Source of the DNA: Lama guanicoe
Taxonomy: Eukaryota
NCBI GenBank assembly: GCA_013239625.1
Contig: MU053881.1
Location: forward strand, 1,550,001-1,614,000
Length of the DNA: 64,000 nt
Direction: 5' to 3'
Within the stretch, counting starts at the first letter, position 1, and every line of letters begins with the position of its first letter. Below, piece after piece: positions 4,091 through 52,900 of the stretch. A model generated the notes under the pieces. It was not told the origin of the DNA and made no database searches. It saw only the letters and a program-made list of their open reading frames with translations. A program made the translations under genes and the position numbers.

Positions 4091-6399
4091 TATTAATCAG
4101 AAGTCTTGGAACATACAACAACTTAAACTAGCTTGAGTAAAGGGGAATTTACTGACTCACAAAACCAAGCAGCAGAACCATCAGGGTGCAGGTGGCTTCG
4201 GAATAGGGCCGTGATTCATCCGTCCCAGTTTCCCAGAGCAAACACAGACACGGACCTTCTGCAGGCCACACAGGCCCTTCTGGCCCTCGGGCTGCTTGTG
4301 GCCAGGGCTTGTGGCCTGCGGTGACCATGGGAGAAGTTAAGACAGGCTTCAAGGGAGGCACAGGGTGTCAAGCTCGGGAAGGGACCACCAAGACAGAGAC
4401 ACCTGGTGTGGGGACACCATTGGTGATGTGGCATCAGTAATAGTGAAAGGACCAGGGTTTGAGAATGATTTCCTTTTCTTTTCTAAATTAAAGCAAAATC
4501 AAGGTTAGCAGCATAGGGACTTCATCCTCCCATCAGCATCCCTGTGCATTTTCCTGTGGGGAGAGAGAGAGAGTCACAGCTGGTCCACACCCCATGGCAT
4601 TCCCCTGGGGAGGAAAAGGTAGAAAGAATAACATATGCAAAGGCACTGAGGCCTGAAATAACAAGAAACGTCTGAGGAAATGCAGGTGAACCTCGAGAGT
4701 CTCTCCATCCTCAGTATCACGTGAGCGTCTGCCTCTCTGAGGGATGGAAGAAGTAAGGGTTCTAGTTATCAGTATCTTTGTGCCCCTTACAGTATGAAGT
4801 GCCTACTGTGTGTGGTGGGGATCAGGGGTCACTGGAGCCAACAGAGGGGCTGGTCTGGACTCATCTCATGCCCCCTCCCTTACCGCATACTCCCACCTAA
4901 GGAATGATCTGTATTTCCCCAAACCTTTCTTGTCATTTCATACCTCAGTGCCTTTGCACATGTTATTTTTGCTACCTTTTCTTGCTGGCCAACTTCTCCT
5001 CCGTGCAGACATAGCTCAGGAGTCTCTTCTCCCATGAAGTGTGCATTGCCCCACAGAGCTGATTCCTCCCTCAGGTGCCACCACAAACCTGGTGCCGACC
5101 TCTCCCGGCTGGCCGCACTGCACCCACCTCCATGACCCTCACTGGACTGTGGTCCTTTGTTATTAAATGAAGTAAATGAACGACTGAATGATGATGGTGA
5201 TCATTATGACCTAACATTTGACAAAGGTGCCAACGTGCAGCAGGATGGCACTCTTCTGATGGGCATGGTGCCCCACGGGGCTTGGAGGCAGACCCTGCCT
5301 GGCACACAGCAGGCTTTCAGTGAGTGGCCACTGGATCTTCTGGCTCTGACCACTCACCACACGAATGGAGGCGGAGTGAGTGGAGGGCCCTGGGGAGACA
5401 CGGGCTGCATGACACCCCAGTCTGAGCCTCTGTCTTCTCTGCCTTTCTGTCTCCGGGAACCTCCCCGGAGGCAAGAAAAGACCCTTTGAACGTCCCCTCA
5501 GAAAAGCCTCACATTCTCTGTGGCTGTGGCTGGGAGAAGTGGGCTGAGCCTGTGGCTCTGTGGCTCGGTGGCGGCCTCCCACGTCTGGCACTTCCTGGGT
5601 TGCCTCGAAAGGCTGGAAGGCACCTGCGGGTCTTGGAGCGTTTTCACAGAAGCGCTTGTTCTTTTCTTTCCTGTGGCCTCACAGTGTCTTTCTTGTAAGG
5701 CGTTGCAGATGTCGGGCTGAGTTGGTGCAGGCAGGGAGGCGTCTGCAAACAATGGCTGCACATTTGAGAGGCGTCCCCTCCAGGAGTCACAGGGACCACT
5801 CGGGGCTCCGAGGCTCAGACACCTGGAGGGGCTCGGCCTTTGTTTCTGGAGGACAAACTGGATGCTCAGGCCTGGGGTCTGAAAGCAGCGGTCTGCACAT
5901 GGTAAACCTGGGGGGCCGTGGAAAGGGACTGGGCCTCGGGAGGCAGGTGGACCCCGGCCACGGGGCCGTGCCTCTCCCTGGGGGTGCACTTCACTTCTAA
6001 ACTGGGGAGGATAACCCTGCTCCGGAGGGGTGTTGCAACAGCGGAGACGATGTATTTAAACTCTGCAAGGGGAGGAGGGAGAAGCCGCGTTCGTTAGCAC
6101 TGTCTGTATGTGAGGGAGGCACAGGACGTGGTGGGTCAGCCATTACCAGCCACCCCTAGGGCGGGTTATTTCTTCTCTCGGGGTCTAGGGCTCCGGTGTA
6201 GTAAGCTGGGATAATGTAAGTGTTAAATGAGCTAATACTTGAAAAGCTGTGAGGACCAAGCCTGGCACACAGTAATGGTTTGACGTGTGTTTTACTTGTA
6301 GTAGTAAGTTGTAGTTTTCCTTCATTCACTCACTTCTTACCACTGTAATTACTCAATTACTTAGATATGAGAATTAATGGGTACTTTATGGGTTTGAAA

Positions 6400-8899: not shown

Positions 8900-10580
8900 T
8901 TCTTTTTTTCTTTCTTTCCTGAAGTATGGTTAGTTTACAATGTTGTGTCAGTTTCTGGTGCACAGCATCATGTTTCAGCCATACATGTACGTACACACAT
9001 TCCTTTTCATATTCTTTTTCACTATAGGTTACTACCAGATATTGAATATAGTTCCCTGTGCTACACAGAAGAAACTTGTTGTTTATCTTATTCATAGTAG
9101 TTACTATTTGCAAACCTCAAACTCCCAATTTATCCCTTCCCACCCCTTTTCCCTCCTGGTGACCATAAGCTTGTTTTCTAGGTCCATGAGTCCATTTCTG
9201 TTTTGTAAATAAGTTCATTTCTGTCTTTTTTTAGATTCCAGTTGTAAGTGATATCATATGGTATTTTTCTTTCTCTTTCTGACTTACTTCACTTAGAATG
9301 ACAGTCTCCAGGTCCATCCATGTTGCTGCAAATGGTGTTATTTTATTCTTTTTTATGGCTGAGTAGTATTCCATTGTATAAATATACCACCTCTTCTTTA
9401 ACCAGTCATCTGTCGATGGACATTTAGGTTGTTTCCATGTCTTGGCTATTGTAAATAGTGTTGCTGTGAACATTGAAGTAAGGTATATTAGTTTTTTTTT
9501 TATATGAGTTTTTTTTTTTTTTTTTTTTTTTTTTCGGGTACACACCCAGGAGTGGAATTGCTGGTTCATATGGTAGTTTTGGTTTTAGTTTTGAGGAACC
9601 TCCACACTTTTCCACAGTGGCTGTACCAGTTTACGTTCCCACCAGTGGTGTACAGGGGTTCCCTTTTCTCCACATCCCTGCCAACATTTATTATCTGTGG
9701 TCTTTTTGAGGATAGTCATTCTGACAGCTATGAGATGGTATCTTGTTGCAGGCTGGGTTTTTTTTGGCAGGGGTAAGGGAGGTAATTAAGTTTATTTAAT
9801 TTTCTTTTTCTGTAATGGAGGTACTGGGGATTGAACCTAGGACCTCATGCATGCTAAGCTTGCGTTCTACCACTGAGCTATACCCTCCCCTTCCTTGCGG
9901 CTTTGATTTGCATTTCTTTGATAATTGGTGATGTTGAACATCTTTTCATGTGCCTGTTGGCCATCTGTAAGTCTTCTTTGTAAAAATGTCTGTTCAGGTC
10001 TTCTGCCCATTTTTTAATTGGGTTTTTTTTTAATATTGAGTTGTATGAGCTGTTTATATATTTTGGATATTAACCCCTTGCTGATCATAACATTAGCAAA
10101 TATTTTCTCCCACTCAGTAAGTTGTCTTTTCATTTTGTTGTGGGTTTCCTTTACTGTGCAACCGCTTTTAAGTTTAATTAGGTCCCATTTGTTCATTTTT
10201 GCTTTTATTTCCTTTGCTGTAGGAGACAGATCCAAAAAAAACATTGCTGTAGTTTATGTCAAAGACTGTTCCACCTCTGTTTTCTTCTAGGAGTTTTATG
10301 GTTCCCAGTCTTACATTTAGAGCTTTAATCCACTCTGAGTTTATTTTTGTATATGTTATGAGAAAATGTTCTAATGTTATTCTTTTACATATAGCTGTCC
10401 AGTTTACCCAGCACCACTATTGAAGAGACTTTCCTCATTCTTCCCTCTTCTGTCGTAGACTGGTTAACCGTACGTGTGTGGGTGTGTCTCTGGGCTCGCT
10501 ACTCTGTTCCATTGATCTGTGCGTCTGGTTTTTGCCGGTGCCATACTGTTTTGATTACTGTACCTTTGTAGTATAGTCTA
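8900..10580 (-). mobile_element. Lineage-specific L1 3' part (ORF2 end plus 3'UTR), containing a SINE at ~9755-9890
   Basis: Minus-strand translation TIAKTWKQPKCPSTDDWLKKRWYIYTMEYYSAIKK and KAKMNKWDLIKLKS; T-rich tail at left. Confidence 0.92.
9755..9890 (-). mobile_element. Vic-1-like SINE
   Basis: ggaggtactggggattgaacctaggacctcatgcatgctaagc...ccactgagctataccctcccc. Confidence 0.9.
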
Positions 10581-10699
10581 GGAGCCTGCACTTCTTAACA
10601 AACCACATGGGGAGGTGGAGCAGCCTCGCCTGGTATAGACCTATCAGGGTGGACTCAGTTGCCTCCAGTGTACACCAGCACTGTCAAGTGGCTTAATTT

Positions 10700-24755: not shown

Positions 24756-24883
24756 GGGTGGTTCCTCCGTGGTGAAAAGGACTTTGAGGGGGAAAAAAGC
24801 CAAATGTAGGATTTCCCATGGGTGGTTCCTCCGTGGTAAAAAGGACTTTGAGGGGGAAAAAAGCCAAAGGTAGGATTTCCCAT
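24756..24883 (+). repeat. 64-bp tandem duplication (2 copies)
   Basis: 24756-24819 and 24820-24883 differ at 2 positions. Confidence 0.95.
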
Positions 24884-44807: not shown

Positions 44808-45146
44808 TTTTTTTTTAATACCGAGTTTATTAAGACATAATTCATATACCACACAATCCACTCATTTAAAGTGTGCAAGTCGATGGGTTTTCATATATTC
44901 CCAGAGCTGTGCAACCATTACTACAATCAATTTGAGAACCTTGTATCCCCTGAAAGGGAGGCTTGGGCCCATTAGCAGTCCCGAGCCCCCCCACCCCAGC
45001 TTTAGGGAACCACGGATCCACTTGCTTTCTCCATAGGTTTGCCTACTCTGAACACTTCGTATAAACGGAATCACACAGTCTGGGGTCTTCTGTGCCTGTT
45101 TCTTTCGCCCAGGCTGCTTCCAGAGTTTAGCTGTATTGTAGCATGT
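44808..45146 (-). mobile_element. L1MB-type 3' end
   Basis: tttattaagacataattcatatacc...agagctgtgcaaccattactacaatcaattt. Confidence 0.8.
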
Positions 45147-45499
45147 TGGACACTTGGCTGGTCAGACTTCAAGATAAGGTGGAAATCATCCCATATCAGA
45201 ACAAATGAATCGGGCTTCATTCTTTTGATTTTACTCTAGTCACTTGAATAGGCAAGATATTTATAACTCAAGATTCCAATGGTATTGAAGGGTGTTCATT
45301 GAGGAATGTCCTTCCACCTCTGTCCTGTAGCAACCGAGTTGCCCTCCCCAGTCATTTCCCCTGCGTCCTTTTAAGGGTGTTTCTGGCCCATGCAGGCAAA
45401 CGTGTGTGTAAATACAGTCTTTTCCTGCTCTTGAAAGGGCCCATTCCCGGGCCCTGCCTAAGCTGCATGGTGCTTCTTCTCTACATGTCATCCTGAAAG

Positions 45500-46200
45500 A
45501 CGACAAACAGTACCCCAGGAGAGTTCTAACTTGTAATTCTCTTGGACGGAGGTTGAGCATTTTTTTTCATGCATTTCAGAGAAATTTCCTTCTCCGTGAA
45601 TGGCCCCATCCTTTCCCGGGTCCGTTCTTCCGCTGGGTTGTTCACCTGCTCCTCACTGATTTAAGAAGTCGTCATATGGGTTAGAAATACCTCCCCACAG
45701 TTTGGTCCTATTCCTTTGACTGCTTTTGGTTTTTCTTTGGGGTCATGGCCAAAAAATTTTAATGTACTCACATTTATCAGTCTTCTACTGCATGGCTTCT
45801 GAAGTTTGTGTCATATGTAGAAGAGTCTTCCCAAACCAGAGATTATAAAGGAAATTTATGACTCCTTTTTAGTCCTTTAATGGCTTCATTTTGCTTCCTT
45901 CTTTTTAAAGGCTGCCTAGGATTTCACGGCTAGAGTGTGTCATGATTTACCTCGCCATCCTCCCGTCATTGGGTGCATGGCTTGTTTCCAGTCTGTTTCT
46001 ATTAGACATGATGGTGCCGTGAGTCCTCTAGTACACAGTGCTCTGGTGCACACGTGGAAGCGTATCTGAGGATGAATTCCTCAAAGCGGAATTACTAGAT
46101 CAAAGAGTGTGAGCGTTTTCGATTTTGAAATGTATTGCCAAACGCCTTTCTAAAGAGGTTGTCCTGCATTCTTCCCTCCAGTGTTATAGGAGAGCGCCTT
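45500..46200 (-). mobile_element. Old L1ME-type fragments
   Basis: gttgagcatttttttcatgcattt, ttgtttccagtctgtttctatt, ggaattactagatcaaagag..tattgccaa. Confidence 0.6.
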
Positions 46201-46692
46201 GCCAGCTTTTTTTTTTAATGGAAAATATCTTTGTTTATTTTCTTCTCAAAATATTAAGTGTGGGAAAGTTGGACAAGTGGACATGCTTAGAATGTGTGGG
46301 GTGGAGACCTTCCTTTCAGCAGCTTGGGCCAGCGATTAATTATTAGATTAATTATTGAAATACACAATTTTTAATATGCATATACAAAGTTTTTAAACCT
46401 GAAAAAAAAAAAGTATCTCATCCTGACACCTCCTGCGCAGCCCATAACTGCCAAAGTGACAACCTTAAAAATAAAACGTCTTTAAAAGATTTTAGCATAT
46501 TGTTTATTAGGCCACAAGGAACTTCATGCTCCTTCTCTCTTACCTTGGCGCTGCCGCCTTCTCTTCTGGGAGGAGAAAGTGCAGAGGCTTGTCTTCACAT
46601 TGTCTTGGAAAGAGACAGGAGTTTGGAAGATCTGTGCTTCCATATTTTATCCATTAATTAAAACCCTTCTTTATAATGAGTTATTGCTCTTT

Positions 46693-47500
46693 TTTTCTGA
46701 TGATTTGATTCATTTATTAGAATCATTTGTTCTTTTTTTAAACATTTTTTAATTGAGTCATAGTCATTTTACAATGTTCTGTCAAATTCCAGTGTAGAGC
46801 ACAATTTTTCAGTTATACATGAACATACATATGTTCATTATCACATTTTTTTTTTTGCTGTGAGCTACCACAAGATCTTGTATATATTTCCCTGTGCCAT
46901 ACAGCATAATCTTGTTTATCTATTCTACACTTTGAAGTCCCAGTCCGTCCCTTCCCACCCCCACACCCCCTTGGCAACCGCAAGTTCTATGTCTATGAGT
47001 CTGTTTCTGTTTTGTATTTATGTTTTTTTTTTTTAGATTCCACATATGAGCGATCTCATATGGTCTTTTTCTTTCTCTTTCTGGCTTACTTCACTTGGAA
47101 TGACATTCTCCAGGGACACCCATGTTGCTGCAAATTGCGCTATGCTGTCATTTTTATGGCTGAATAGTATTCCATTGTATAAATATACCACCTCTTCTTT
47201 ATCCAGTCATCTGTCGATGGACATTTAGGCTGTTTCCATGTCTTGGCTATTGTAAATAGTGCTGCTATGAACATTGGGGTGCAGGTGTCATTTTGAAGTG
47301 GCTGCTTCTGGATGTAAGACCAGGAGTGGGATTCCTGGGTCATACGGTAAGTCTATTCCTAGTTTTTTGAGGAATCTCCATACTGTTTTCCACAGTGGCT
47401 GCACCAAACTGCATTCCCACCAGCAGTGTAGGAGGGTTCCTTTGTCTCCACAGCCTCTCCAGCATTTGTCATTTGTGGACTTTTGAATGATGGCCATTCT
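46693..47500 (-). mobile_element. Young 5'-truncated L1 (left copy) with short 3' transduction
   Basis: [41 protein letters not shown]2 end on minus, 3'UTR and T tail. Confidence 0.93.
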
Positions 47501-48340
47501 CTTCTTTATCTATTTTATACATATCTATTTATATTTATCTATTTTAACATATACAGTAATGAGTATATGTTAATCGCAAGCTCCTAATTTATCCCTCCGT
47601 CTGCCCTCCACTTTCCCCTTCGGTAAACATAAGTTTGCTTTCTACGTCTGTGAGTCTCTTTCTGTTTTGTAAATAAGTTCATTTGTATCATTTTTTAAGA
47701 TTCCACATATAAGTGATATCATATAATATTTGTCTTTTTCTTTCTGACTTACTTCGCTTATTATGATCATCTCTACCATCCGTGTTGTTACAAATGGCAT
47801 TATTTTATTCTTTTGTGGCTGAGTAATATTCCATTGTATATGTATACCACAACTTTATCCAGTCATCTGTCAATGGACATTTAGGTTGCTTCCATGTCTT
47901 GTCTATTGTAAATAGTGCTGCTGTATCTTTTTATTTTTTTAATTTAATTTAATTTAATTTAATTTGGGGGGGAGGATAGAGGTAATTAGGTTTGTTTGTT
48001 TGTTATTTGTTTGCTTGTTTGTTTAAATGAAGGTACTGGGGACTGTACCTTGTATATGCTAAGGACCTTGTGCATGCTAAGCATGTACTCTACCACTGAG
48101 CTATACCCTCCCCCTGTATCTTTTTAAATTAGAGTTTTCTCCAGATACATGCCCAGGAGTGGGATTGTGGAATCATATGGTAACTCTGTTTTTAGTTTTT
48201 TAAGGAACCTCCATACTGTTTTCCATAGTGGCTGCACCAATTTACATTCCCACCAGCAGTGTAGGAGGGTTCCCTTTTCTCCTGCATTTATTATTTGTAG
48301 GCTTTTTAATGATGGCCATTCTGACTGGTGTGAGGTGATA
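47501..48340 (-). mobile_element. Older L1 3' part (inverted segment) containing a Vic-1-like SINE at 47934-48113
   Basis: L1 ORF2 end on minus; SINE flanked by 13-bp TSD ctgtatcttttta (47921-47933, 48114-48126). Confidence 0.9.
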
Positions 48341-48399
48341 TGTCTTTGTAGTTTTGATAGAAAGATCACTCTTAAAATAGGTATAAAGAGCAATAATTC

Positions 48400-49044
48400 C
48401 CAGTCAGAATGGCCATCATTCAAAAGTCCACAAATGACAAATGCTGGAGAGGCTGTGGAGAAAAAAAGACAGATGACAAAGAAGAGGTAGTGTATTTATA
48501 CAATGGAATACTATTCAGCCATAAAAATGACAACATAGTGCCATTTGCAGCAACATGGGTGTCCCTGGAGAATGTCATTCCAAGTGAAGTAAGCCAGAAA
48601 GAGAAAGAAAAAGACCATATGAGATCGCTCATATGTGGAATCTAAATAATAATAATAATAAATACAAAACAGAAACAGACTCAGACATAGAATACAAACT
48701 TGTGGTTGCCAAGGGTGCGGGGGGTGGAAAGGGACAGACTGGGATTTCAAAATGTAGAATAGATAAACAAGATTATACTGTATAGCACAGGGAAATATAT
48801 ACAAGATCTTGTGGTAGCTCACAGCAAAAAAACATGTGACAATGAACATATGTATGTTCATGTATAACTGAAAAATTATGCTCTACACTGGAATTTGACA
48901 CATTGTAAAATAGCTATAACTCAATAAAAAATGTTAATAAATACATACATACATACATACACACACACATAATTATCTCCCCCTACCCAAAATAAATAAT
49001 TTTTTTTAAACATGCTATAAATAAATAAATAATAATAAATAAAT
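48400..49044 (+). mobile_element. Young 5'-truncated L1 (right copy), internally deleted
   Basis: Near-identical to reverse complement of 46740-47500 but lacks ~230 bp after ggctgtggaga. Confidence 0.93.
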
Positions 49045-49060
49045 AAAATAGATAAAGAAG

Positions 49061-49210
49061 GACCTACTGTATAGCACAGGAAACTATGTTCAATATCTTA
49101 TGATAGCCTCTAATGAAAAAGAATCTGAAGAAGAACTGAATCACTTGGCTGTACACCTGAAACTGACACAACATTGTAAACTAACGACACTTAAATTTTA
49201 AAAAATAATA
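49061..49210 (+). mobile_element. Distal 3' end of the older L1 split by the inversion
   Basis: gacctactgtatagcacaggaaactatgttcaatatc continues the element that ends ...aaaatagataaagaag at 47501 on the opposite strand. Confidence 0.85.
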
Positions 49211-49594
49211 AACACACACACAAATCATTCTAAATACCTGAAGCCATTGAGGTTTCATCTCATCCCCTCCCGATTGTCACTCTCTTTAGCAGAACGTCTC
49301 ACACCATCAGCTTAACATCTATTTTTATTTAAATTTGTGTAATAGCCCTTCCATCTTGCTAATTTAAAAGGTAGCCATCATATCTCTCTTCTTTTAAGAG
49401 AGAAAAGCCTCAAAGCCAGAAAGTGCTTTTACAGTTGCGCTGCTGGCTCTGCAAACCTGTGGAGGCATCCAGCCCCTCAAAGCCCACTGGTGTCTCTGCT
49501 CAGGGCAAGGGGAGTGAGAACGGTGCCCAGCACAAAGGGCCACCTGGGGAGTGAGGTGGAAAGCGTGGATGAAACGCTCTAACTTGGGGCCTAC

Positions 49595-49978
49595 GTGTCA
49601 GTCTGCTCCAGCTGCCATCACAAAACACCAAGGCTGGGGGCTTTAACGCAGAAATTTATTTTCTCACAGGTCTGGAAGCTGGAAATCCAAGACCAAGGTG
49701 CTGTGGGGGTCAGGTCTTGAGCAGGGCTCTCTTCTTGGCTTGTAGACAGGTCCTTCCTGGCTTCTCGCTGGGTCCTCCCCAGTGGAGAGAGAGAGAAAAG
49801 GAGAGATATCTCTGGTATCTCCTCCCATTCTATGTGGACACAAATCCTGTGGGATTGGGGCCCCACCCTTATGACTTCATTTAACCTTACTACCTCCCTG
49901 AAGGCCCACTGGGGGTGGGGGTAGGGGAAGACTTTAACCTCTGAATTAGGGAAGGGGCGCAATTTTGTCCCTAACAGC
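49595..49978. mobile_element. MLT1A-type LTR
   Basis: tcagtctgctccagctgccatcacaaaacacca...ccccacccttatgacttcatttaaccttactacctcc. Confidence 0.85.
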
Positions 49979-52900
49979 CTGGGACACAAAATACAGCCCA
50001 CAGGCTGAGCATCGTGAAATTAACACTTTACCCAGAAGGATGAAATCCATAATCCCCATTGTTACCCCAAATCCGGCCCCTGACCGTACTGCCAGCCTTG
50101 TGCCTCCCCCACGGATCCGCCCTTGGACCACCCCCTCCCCTGCCCCACACGTGTCCCTTACCCAGCATACCCTCTCCTCATCCAAACCCACACAGTCTTC
50201 CTGACCCCTGAGACCAGGTCAGGCCCCCGGTTACCCACCCTGGCAGCCCCAGGCACCTCCTGCTGGGGACCACTTGTACCTTCTGGGATGTCTTTCCACC
50301 GAGCTCAGTTCCCTGGGCCGAAGCCCACTGAGCTGTGTCCCCAGCATCGCACAAAGTGGACGCTCAGAACGTGCTTGCCGGTGGATCACCCACATGTGCA
50401 CACACGCAGTCGCTCATTCACTAGCAGAAAATGTCACTCGTCCCTCTACATCTCAGACTGCTGGTTAACTGCCGGCACCAGAGCTAAGTGCTGTCCTCCC
50501 TCAGTCCTTATCATGCTTTGTCTCCCCTCCCCTCTTTCTTTACCCAAAGTCAGAATCCTCCTTGCCCCACCTCTGTGGCTGGCCACATGGCTCTCTCCTG
50601 GTTTATTTCTGAGCGATTTCAAACTACGTGGGCAGCCAGATACCGGTTACCAAGGCTCCATGTGGCCGGAGGTCACTCCTGCACCAACCTGTCGGGGCAG
50701 GTGCTGGAGCTCTGAAGTAGCTTTGGTCCTCCTGGCAGCCCGGGAGACGACCCCGGCTGGCTTTGTCCCTCTTTGGACAAGAGGATGCGATGTGATTGTA
50801 GAATGGCGGCTACTGTGCCACTCGGCTTTTTAAAAAACAGGGGTTTGATGCAGCAGAGCCCATGGTCCAGAGACAGCAGCTTGAGCACTGGAGGGAAAAG
50901 CCTGAGCCCTGGGCAGGGATGAGAAGGGAGCTGTCCTCAGTCGAGGCTGGGGAGGCAGAGCAGGTGGGCCATGCAGGCCTAACAGGCCAGGGGAGGGAGG
51001 GGTGGCCGGAAACCCACCCCGCGGTCCCTCTGTTCATCCAGCCATGTTTCCTGCCTGCTCTGCTCTGACCCCATGCTGGGTGCTGGGGCCGTGCTGGCCA
51101 CTCTTCTTCACGCATCAGCCCAGTAAACCCTCTCTGTGCACTGCGATGGGTGCTGGGATCCCAAAGGGATCTGAGATCTCGCCAGGTGAGCCAATGATGT
51201 CCAAGCACCAAAGACTGTGATGGAGAAATAGGCCATGCTTCAGAGCAAGATGGAGTCAGGAACAAGGAGGAACAGAGGGACAAGGCCAGGAAGTCTTCCT
51301 GGAGGAGGTGGCATGGTCACTCTGCCCTGAGACATGATTAAAAGCTGGCTAAGTGGGAAAGTGCTCAAGGTCATTTTAGGCAGGGGAAGAGTGAGTCCCA
51401 GACCTAGTCTCTGGGTGCTCAGCCAGCTCTGCTTAGTAACCTGATCGTAGGACGCCTGGAGAGGAGGACCTGGAAGGCCGAGAGACCAATTCGAGCTGGG
51501 TCCTCGAGCGGGCGTGCAGTGGCTTCACTGGGGTGTGGGGGCTTTTCCCAACTCCACCCACCCTCTCCAACCCCAAGAGGGAGAGAAGAACGCAGGGGGA
51601 AGCCAGAGGCTCACCCCCATCAGGGCCACTGCAAGGGGTTGCGTCCTCCAAACCACACCCACAGTGAGACTAGAGCCACACAGACACCCCACCCAAGTGA
51701 GGAGGAGCCCGGGGCCCAGGTAGGGGCCGGGAAGGCAGGAGGAGGACCAGGTCATTCATTCATTCCTGCCATCAACAGTCCTGTGTCCTTGTGGGGCTTG
51801 CCTGCTACAGCAGGGAGACAGAAAACAAACAAAATACAGCCTCCAGTTACATCGATGCTGACAGCGCTGGGGAGGAAGATAAGGCAGCAAGAGGAGAGGA
51901 CGGGGCAGCCAGGCGTGGGGTGAGGGGCTGGGATGGCACTGCCATGGGGTAAGGGCTGCCAGGAACCACTTTTTTTTTGCTGCCAAATCCACTGTGACTT
52001 TAATAAAGTGAGAAAGGAAGCCAGCCCCAGCGTCTCCGTCATCGCTGGTTACCCGCCCGCTGGGCTCTGTCGCCCACCAGCCCTAAAGGGCAAGGGGCTT
52101 CCCTCTACCTCGGTCACATCTTTCAGTCTGGGCTCCCCCCAGATCCCCCCACTCCCAGCGGCCTGTCCCCTCTGTTTTCTCTGCTCCCAACTCATCGTGT
52201 GTTTTTACCTTGGGAAAAAAACCCAGGCATGGAAATCTCTTAATACAAACCAGATGAGGGGGCTGGTGAAAATGTTTTTCTCCACATCAATCACCCGGGT
52301 CCTTGCTGTGCTGAGAATTTGGTAAGGCCTCATCAGAGCTCCTGCCAAGAATCCCTTCCAGACTTTGCCTGACAAGACACAGGGAAACAATGCCGCCTTC
52401 TGTGTGGTTCGTGAAGCGCCTTTTCACACGTGCTCAGTCCCTCTCCCTGCTTGGATTCAGGTGGGATTGGAGGGTCAGCCTGTCGTGCCCGTGCCGACAG
52501 GGGAGGCTGACCCTCTGCAGTGGGGAGTCGGGCCTCCTGCCAGCAGCCAGTGGGCCCCATGGCCCCCAACCCCGGCCCTGTGCAGGGAATGCATGCTCGG
52601 GGTCTCAGATGGGAAATGCTGGATTTGGAGCAGGTGGCAAGTTGGACCCAGGACCTTAGGAATCCCCTCCCCAAATTAGGCTTAGGGAGACATCAGGCAT
52701 CCATGAGGGCTGGTCCCGGCAAGAGGCCCTGCAGACCCTCCCTCCCCTCTCAGGGCAGAATGCACTGCGTCCAGGCAGAGAGCTCAGCCCAGGAGCCAAG
52801 TAACGAATGGGCGTGAAGGCGCCTTGTGAACCGTTTACCAGCCGTGACGATGTCATCACCGCTGTCCATTGTCTGGCAGCAAATCTGAGCCGATGCCCAC

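Follow-up and report, generated by a model that had tools for sequence, protein, structure and literature searches.

According to the available part of Lee et al. (2008, PMC2603318), exchanged target-site duplications (TSDs) are the published mark of L1 recombination-mediated inversion (L1-RMI), that is, of recombination between finished copies. For tumours, the accessible text of bioRxiv 2024.08.27.596794 describes crosswise second-strand joining between two insertion sites, which also leaves exchanged TSDs ('heteroduplication') and includes reciprocal inversions; post-integration recombination is named there as the alternative and is rejected only because the intermediate is absent. In addition, the accessible sections of bioRxiv 2024.12.14.628481 report an L1 insertion whose reciprocal end was inverted over 917 bp and joined without homology, and the available portion of PMC13526784 indicates that recombination takes place between L1 cDNAs and, as seen in two events, between a cDNA and an endogenous L1. 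Swapped TSDs are normally taken as proof of recombination between finished insertions; here, we describe a locus at which this mark is ambiguous.

The locus lies in a 64,000-nt stretch of the guanaco genome (Lama guanicoe, assembly GCA_013239625.1, contig MU053881.1, positions 1,550,001 to 1,614,000 of the forward strand), hereafter the window, whose own numbering is used throughout. Two L1 copies, hereafter the arms, face each other head to head. The left arm (46693–47500, minus strand) is a 5'-truncated young L1 comprising the last ~155 ORF2 codons and the 3' UTR, and is dead, as the codon table reveals frameshifts. The right arm (48400–49044, plus strand) represents the same L1 3' end, from which 230 nt are deleted and replaced by A7 at 48461–48467. 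Much of the deleted segment is 81–84% complementary to an old L1 only 71 nt away, and our guess is that the loss occurred via hairpin instability. Overall, the arms are 94.5–97.8% identical. An ORF2 frame in the left arm is, over 60 aa, 95% identical to Camelus ORF2 fragments, the highest value among the 120 matches listed. Similarity of the ORF2 C-terminus, the 3' UTR, the A-rich tail and the TSD all point, at the sequence level, to camelid L1 as the origin of both arms.

The TSDs of the two arms are exchanged. The inner copy of TSD A (47501–47516, minus strand) abuts the 5' end of the left arm at a junction without microhomology and matches at 16 of 16 positions the outer copy (49045–49060, plus strand) at the 3' end of the right arm. 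Conversely, the outer copy of TSD B (46678–46692, minus strand) lies at the 3' end of the left arm and matches, with a single mismatch (14/15), the inner copy (48385–48399, plus strand) abutting the 5' end of the right arm. Searching for TSD A with up to two mismatches gave six matches, the remaining four of which correspond to a matching L1 motif within other copies; the chance expectation was 0.01. Reconstruction of the empty sites on the nicked strand yielded TTTT/AT for A and CTTT/AT for B, both L1 endonuclease-type motifs and close to the one given in the available text of PMC13526784. The 899-nt spacer (47501–48399) between the two head-to-head L1 3' ends is inverted in this assembly, and its re-inversion in silico within the identical block of the arms generated A/A and B/B pairs.

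The older L1 interrupted by this rearrangement provides an additional view of the inversion. Its inverted 5' part occupies 47517–48358 (minus strand; by BLAST to 48341, the remainder by eye) and its 3' remainder lies outside the inversion at 49061–49210 (plus strand; by alignment); when rejoined across site A, the element aligns collinearly with four other old copies in the window. It contains a tRNA-type SINE (47934–48113, minus strand) with a 13-nt TSD, which we take to be Vic-1. A tandem array of period 14 (47507–47552, no strand assigned) adds ~32 nt to the old L1 directly upstream of site A; this extra sequence is missing from the four other old copies and possibly reflects slippage at the nicked site.

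Target-site heteroduplication is thus present at both junctions, and L1s in opposite orientation span both breakpoints. Within this assembly, an inversion with exchanged TSDs is therefore well supported. The first-pass annotation had described a TSD swap between two young head-to-head L1 copies and an older L1 split by the inversion, and had predicted that re-inversion would restore matched TSDs; each of these statements was borne out. It had further invoked a crossover between inverted repeats. The inversion with its exchanged TSDs stands, and a crossover of two finished insertions is not established by it, because crosswise joining during insertion gives the same TSD exchange. The 6-nt spacing of the 5' ends, the ORF2 lesions common to both arms, the 230-nt deletion, the SINE in the old L1 and the differing tails had gone unremarked in that annotation.

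We also observed that the two target sites are alike (48370–48391, plus strand; 47510–47545 and 46665–46674, minus strand). A common 7-mer covers both nick sites, a common 9-mer lies upstream of both, and a 10-mer flanking TSD B on its outer side is identical to the end of TSD A together with the base that follows. This likeness could be due to chance in A-rich DNA or to microhomology used in the event.

As the arms contain a 104-nt run of complete identity (P 0.013), we considered whether the assembler had mis-oriented the spacer at this block, the true locus carrying matched TSDs. Flipping the spacer there does give a fully consistent locus. However, the arms otherwise diverge by about 5% and are set apart by the 230-nt deletion, the window is free of N, and reads and read pairs are usually longer than 104 nt. 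Since a misassembly would moreover leave the co-terminal 5' ends and the common lesions described below to be explained, we regard it as very improbable. Among the sequencing runs listed, 20 of 24 (five organism codes, eight studies) contain 0.69–0.75 of the words sampled from 45000–51000, a measure of word content that is silent on orientation and empty sites.

The locus is akin to the L1-RMI events described in the available part of PMC2603318 in that opposite L1s span the breakpoints, the TSDs are unmatched and the spacer is inverted. It differs from the events presented there in that its arms have 5' ends within 6 nt of each other and 5' parts with private lesions in common, its spacer is at the short end of the range, and it is known from the inverted state alone. 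Overall, it behaves as an L1-bounded inversion with exchanged TSDs, which is an already known kind; whether it belongs with the post-insertion or with the insertion-coupled inversions depends on the ancestral state. What is new is a combination of features by which the question of mechanism becomes testable.

The first of these features is the coincidence of the 5' truncation points, which are 6 nt apart in L1 coordinates, with the right arm beginning earlier. Assuming exponentially distributed lengths with a mean of 500–1500 nt, two independent truncations would coincide to this extent with a probability of about 0.4–1.3%. The coincidence was noticed post hoc, at one locus and under an assumed length law, which weakens the argument. 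Both 5' junctions are located exactly at TSD edges and lack microhomology, so that later trimming is unlikely. No local truncation hotspot is apparent, because other L1 pieces in the window begin elsewhere or run further 5': the alignments of four other L1 3' pieces start at left-arm positions 110, 212, 485 and 601, and one piece extends more than 800 nt further in the 5' direction. A hotspot initially suggested by the copy at 8900–9741 was rejected, as this copy continues past a SINE. The 5' end of the old L1 in the spacer, situated ~42 L1 bases upstream of the left arm 5' end, could nevertheless hint at one.

The second feature is the decay common to both arms. Within about 130 nt of ORF2 (48485–48615, plus strand, in the right arm; 47063–47193 in the left arm), the arms have in common five substitutions and a 1-nt deletion that shifts the frame. 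Before filtering, six flagged codons and the first base of codon 121 were common to the arms and unseen in the references; codon 103 was dropped, as it is also present in an older L1 copy. The references were the seven Camelus-labelled fragments among the 120 matches listed, selected for open frames, and the five substitutions occur in none of them (0/7), although not every fragment covers every codon. For comparison, pairs of reference fragments had no non-majority residue in common in 12 of 21 cases and one in the other nine. The private lesions common to both arms therefore indicate that this ORF2 segment descends from one molecule. All five common substitutions replace A/T by G/C (P about 0.01 at an assumed 0.4).

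The two parts of the arms have moreover diverged to different extents. Differences between the arms number 0 in 55 and 5 in 177 ORF2 sites (5/232 in total), as against 15 in 272 (5.5%) in the UTR (Fisher p 0.067; 0.031 counting indels). The lower divergence of ORF2 thus points to different histories of the 5' and 3' parts, and duplication of a whole arm fits this contrast less well. Polarisation of the UTR changes, which could be made only against the older L1 copies in the window, assigned seven to the left arm and four to the right arm and left five unclear; the 7:4 ratio is not significant. Between 46735 and 47000, G in the left arm faces A in the right arm at eight UTR sites, with the reverse at one (p 0.039). 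We looked into ADAR editing of the left arm and discarded it, as the changes common to both arms include T-to-C and T-to-G; a general A/T-to-G/C bias fits better. Further DNA copies of the young L1 family, sought to polarise the UTR, were represented by no match in metagenome or viral contigs and by eight matches in prokaryote genomes, none of them L1-like beyond the motif; this search also yielded seven distant L1 loci, and the motif was not encountered in the literature searched.

These observations bear on a model in which two independent L1 insertions, at B and A, later underwent non-allelic homologous recombination, the crossover inverting the spacer. A simple crossover is insufficient, because the 6-nt coincidence of the 5' ends and, in the absence of added gene conversion, the common ORF2 lesions stay unexplained. 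The model accordingly includes a conversion, in the same event or later, that copied at least 130 nt of ORF2 between the arms. In this form, it explains everything except the co-terminal ends, which would have to be a chance event at the frequency estimated above. Unmatched TSDs are its textbook mark in the available text of PMC2603318, and the identity of the arms compares with a median of 97.1% for the LINE-1 inversions in the accessible part of PMC9675761. Exchange of sequence between the arms is evident from the lesions in common, from their bias from A/T to G/C and from the 104-nt run of identity, and the differing tails fit two sources. The direction of the substitutions fits GC-biased conversion between inverted arms, which is known from palindromes according to the available portions of PMC3723533 and PMC8981503; the left arm's own UTR changes lean in this direction too, though. 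Against the model, the 899-nt spacer is short: more than half of the L1-mediated inversions covered in the available part of PMC2603318 exceed 10 kb, and the median in the PMC9675761 set, as given in the accessible text, is 5,487 bp. We regard later recombination with conversion as a serious possibility that falls appreciably short of an even chance. Were it to apply, the locus would amount to a small L1 inversion of the ordinary type that carries a clear tract of conversion.

Alternatively, the arms could be separate copies of a short non-autonomous L1 master with a fixed 5' end and the ORF2 lesions, between which ordinary recombination inverted the spacer. Such a master would cover the co-terminal ends, the common frameshift and the differing tails together, and reference proteins selected for open frames could miss a family of this kind. 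However, the five substitutions are absent from the seven camelid fragments with their incomplete codon coverage, the UTRs are 5.5% apart, and a search with the lesion frame returned a single protein (73% identity, among three candidates), in a weak search that missed known family members. We consider a short master very improbable.

The explanation that we favour is that the spacer was flipped during L1 insertion and not long afterwards. We give the two variants of this reading, taken jointly, slightly less than an even chance, with the odds over all explanations resting on estimated base rates. In the order of events that we infer, each target site would leave a free 3' end with its TSD, one per spacer end, as deduced from target-primed reverse transcription; the free ends of sites A and B would then be joined crosswise, the 5' part of both arms being likely copied from one molecule. 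In variant (i), two insertions would be under way simultaneously: end B would start second-strand synthesis on the end of the first cDNA and switch to the second cDNA, end A would be attached to the first cDNA at a point 6 nt further in, and later arm-to-arm conversion would spread the common lesions. Variant (ii) would start from a new cDNA, primed at A, which would recombine with an L1 at B that had already decayed; the free A end would be joined near the 5' end of this L1.

We weigh these variants about equally. Variant (i) would give the co-terminal ends directly, and the common lesions would then need later conversion; it also requires the germline to have received two insertions at the same time within 0.9 kb. 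Variant (ii) would directly give the common lesions and the contrast between ORF2 and UTR, and it also fits the presence of a mismatch in TSD B and none in TSD A, the more decayed left tail and the 7/4/5 polarisation of UTR changes. It does not by itself explain why A was joined near the 5' end, and the suppression of cDNA-L1 recombination by mismatches through MSH2, described in the accessible part of PMC13526784, counts against it. Counting against the two variants together, recombination between finished copies is, by our own estimate, probably the commoner route, gene conversion explains the common lesions equally well, and all precedents are somatic or come from cell culture.

Despite these reservations, an inversion coupled to insertion has close counterparts among the described systems. 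Similar to the reciprocal events of synchronous insertion in the available text of bioRxiv 2024.08.27.596794, the locus shows heteroduplicated TSDs, an individual tail and endonuclease motif for each junction, and distinct 3' sequences. In contrast to the events described there, which are somatic and invert megabases, the guanaco locus is old, found in a germline-type assembly and 0.9 kb in size, and its arms could have come to share their decay only by later conversion or from a decayed template. With the case in the accessible sections of bioRxiv 2024.12.14.628481, it has in common a sub-kilobase inversion (917 bp there, 899 here), a TSD copy moved to the other strand and one homology-free junction. 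That case, as presented there, involves one insertion and a 14-bp homology junction, whereas the guanaco locus has its second junction inside another L1, which carries its own TSD and is in part present twice. The cDNA recombination described in the available part of PMC13526784 supplies the homology-driven step needed by both variants; it was seen there in reporter assays in human cell lines, and the mismatch suppression reported in the same system argues against a decayed resident partner. In the open-licence literature, no germline case with co-terminal arms was found, which is weak evidence of absence.

Were the inversion indeed coupled to insertion, a mechanism so far described from tumours and cultured cells would also leave inherited inversions, which could be counted in existing assemblies. 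A more specific reading, according to which the locus preserves, as a germline fossil, two L1 insertions made simultaneously at a distance of 0.9 kb, with ends joined crosswise and one cDNA end serving both junctions, is tentative and on balance unlikely. If it were correct, co-terminal 5' truncation together with swapped TSDs would serve, in any mammalian assembly, to tell insertion-coupled inversions apart from later recombination, and some of the catalogued L1 recombination-mediated inversions would have an insertion-coupled origin. The locus itself has no evident function. A cheap discriminator offered by this locus is whether the arms have the 5' truncation point and private lesions in common.

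The 3' tails of the two arms differ, and each 3' junction has its own A-rich tail and endonuclease motif. The left tail (46693–46742, minus strand) is short and consists of a short A-run, ~35 nt of A-rich sequence with AATAAA, and A4; it is either decayed poly(A) or a short transduction, and no convincing source was found for it within the window. A match of 13/14 between this tail and the flank of the old L1 was dropped, as 10 of 230 A-rich windows reach an equal score. The right tail (48941–49044, plus strand) comprises a microsatellite, a SINE-tail-like stretch, AATAAA, T8 and then (AAAT)n. It reads like a read-through transduction, whose source was not found in the window. In addition, 13 nt of the right tail (49001–49013) are identical to the 3' end of the left arm (46733–46745) in opposite orientation (E 0.08), a match of low complexity that is possibly templated.

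The first-pass annotation had placed the left insertion ~35 bp upstream of the ATG of a gene. An ATG is indeed present at 46643 (minus strand), 34 nt from TSD B, and the gene start found no support: the ATG frame gave no candidate among proteins of 71–2000 aa, the other open frame gave no protein at E up to 0.001, and none of 16 ORF or exon candidates matched Pfam. An exon-like 60-nt piece at 46544–46603 (minus strand), 74 nt from TSD B, has a good acceptor and a strong donor and showed no protein match in two frames. It ranked second of the 28 minus-strand candidates listed in a rough scan, and may be an internal exon of a gene.

Other repeats were observed elsewhere in the window. A longer old L1 occupies 8900–10600 (minus strand), with a SINE interruption near 9770–9890 and a 26-nt T run at 9509–9534. 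At 24756–24883 lies a 64-nt tandem duplication with 97% identity, and 4613–4685 and 4909–4981 form a 73-nt inverted repeat, 86% complementary and 223 nt apart.
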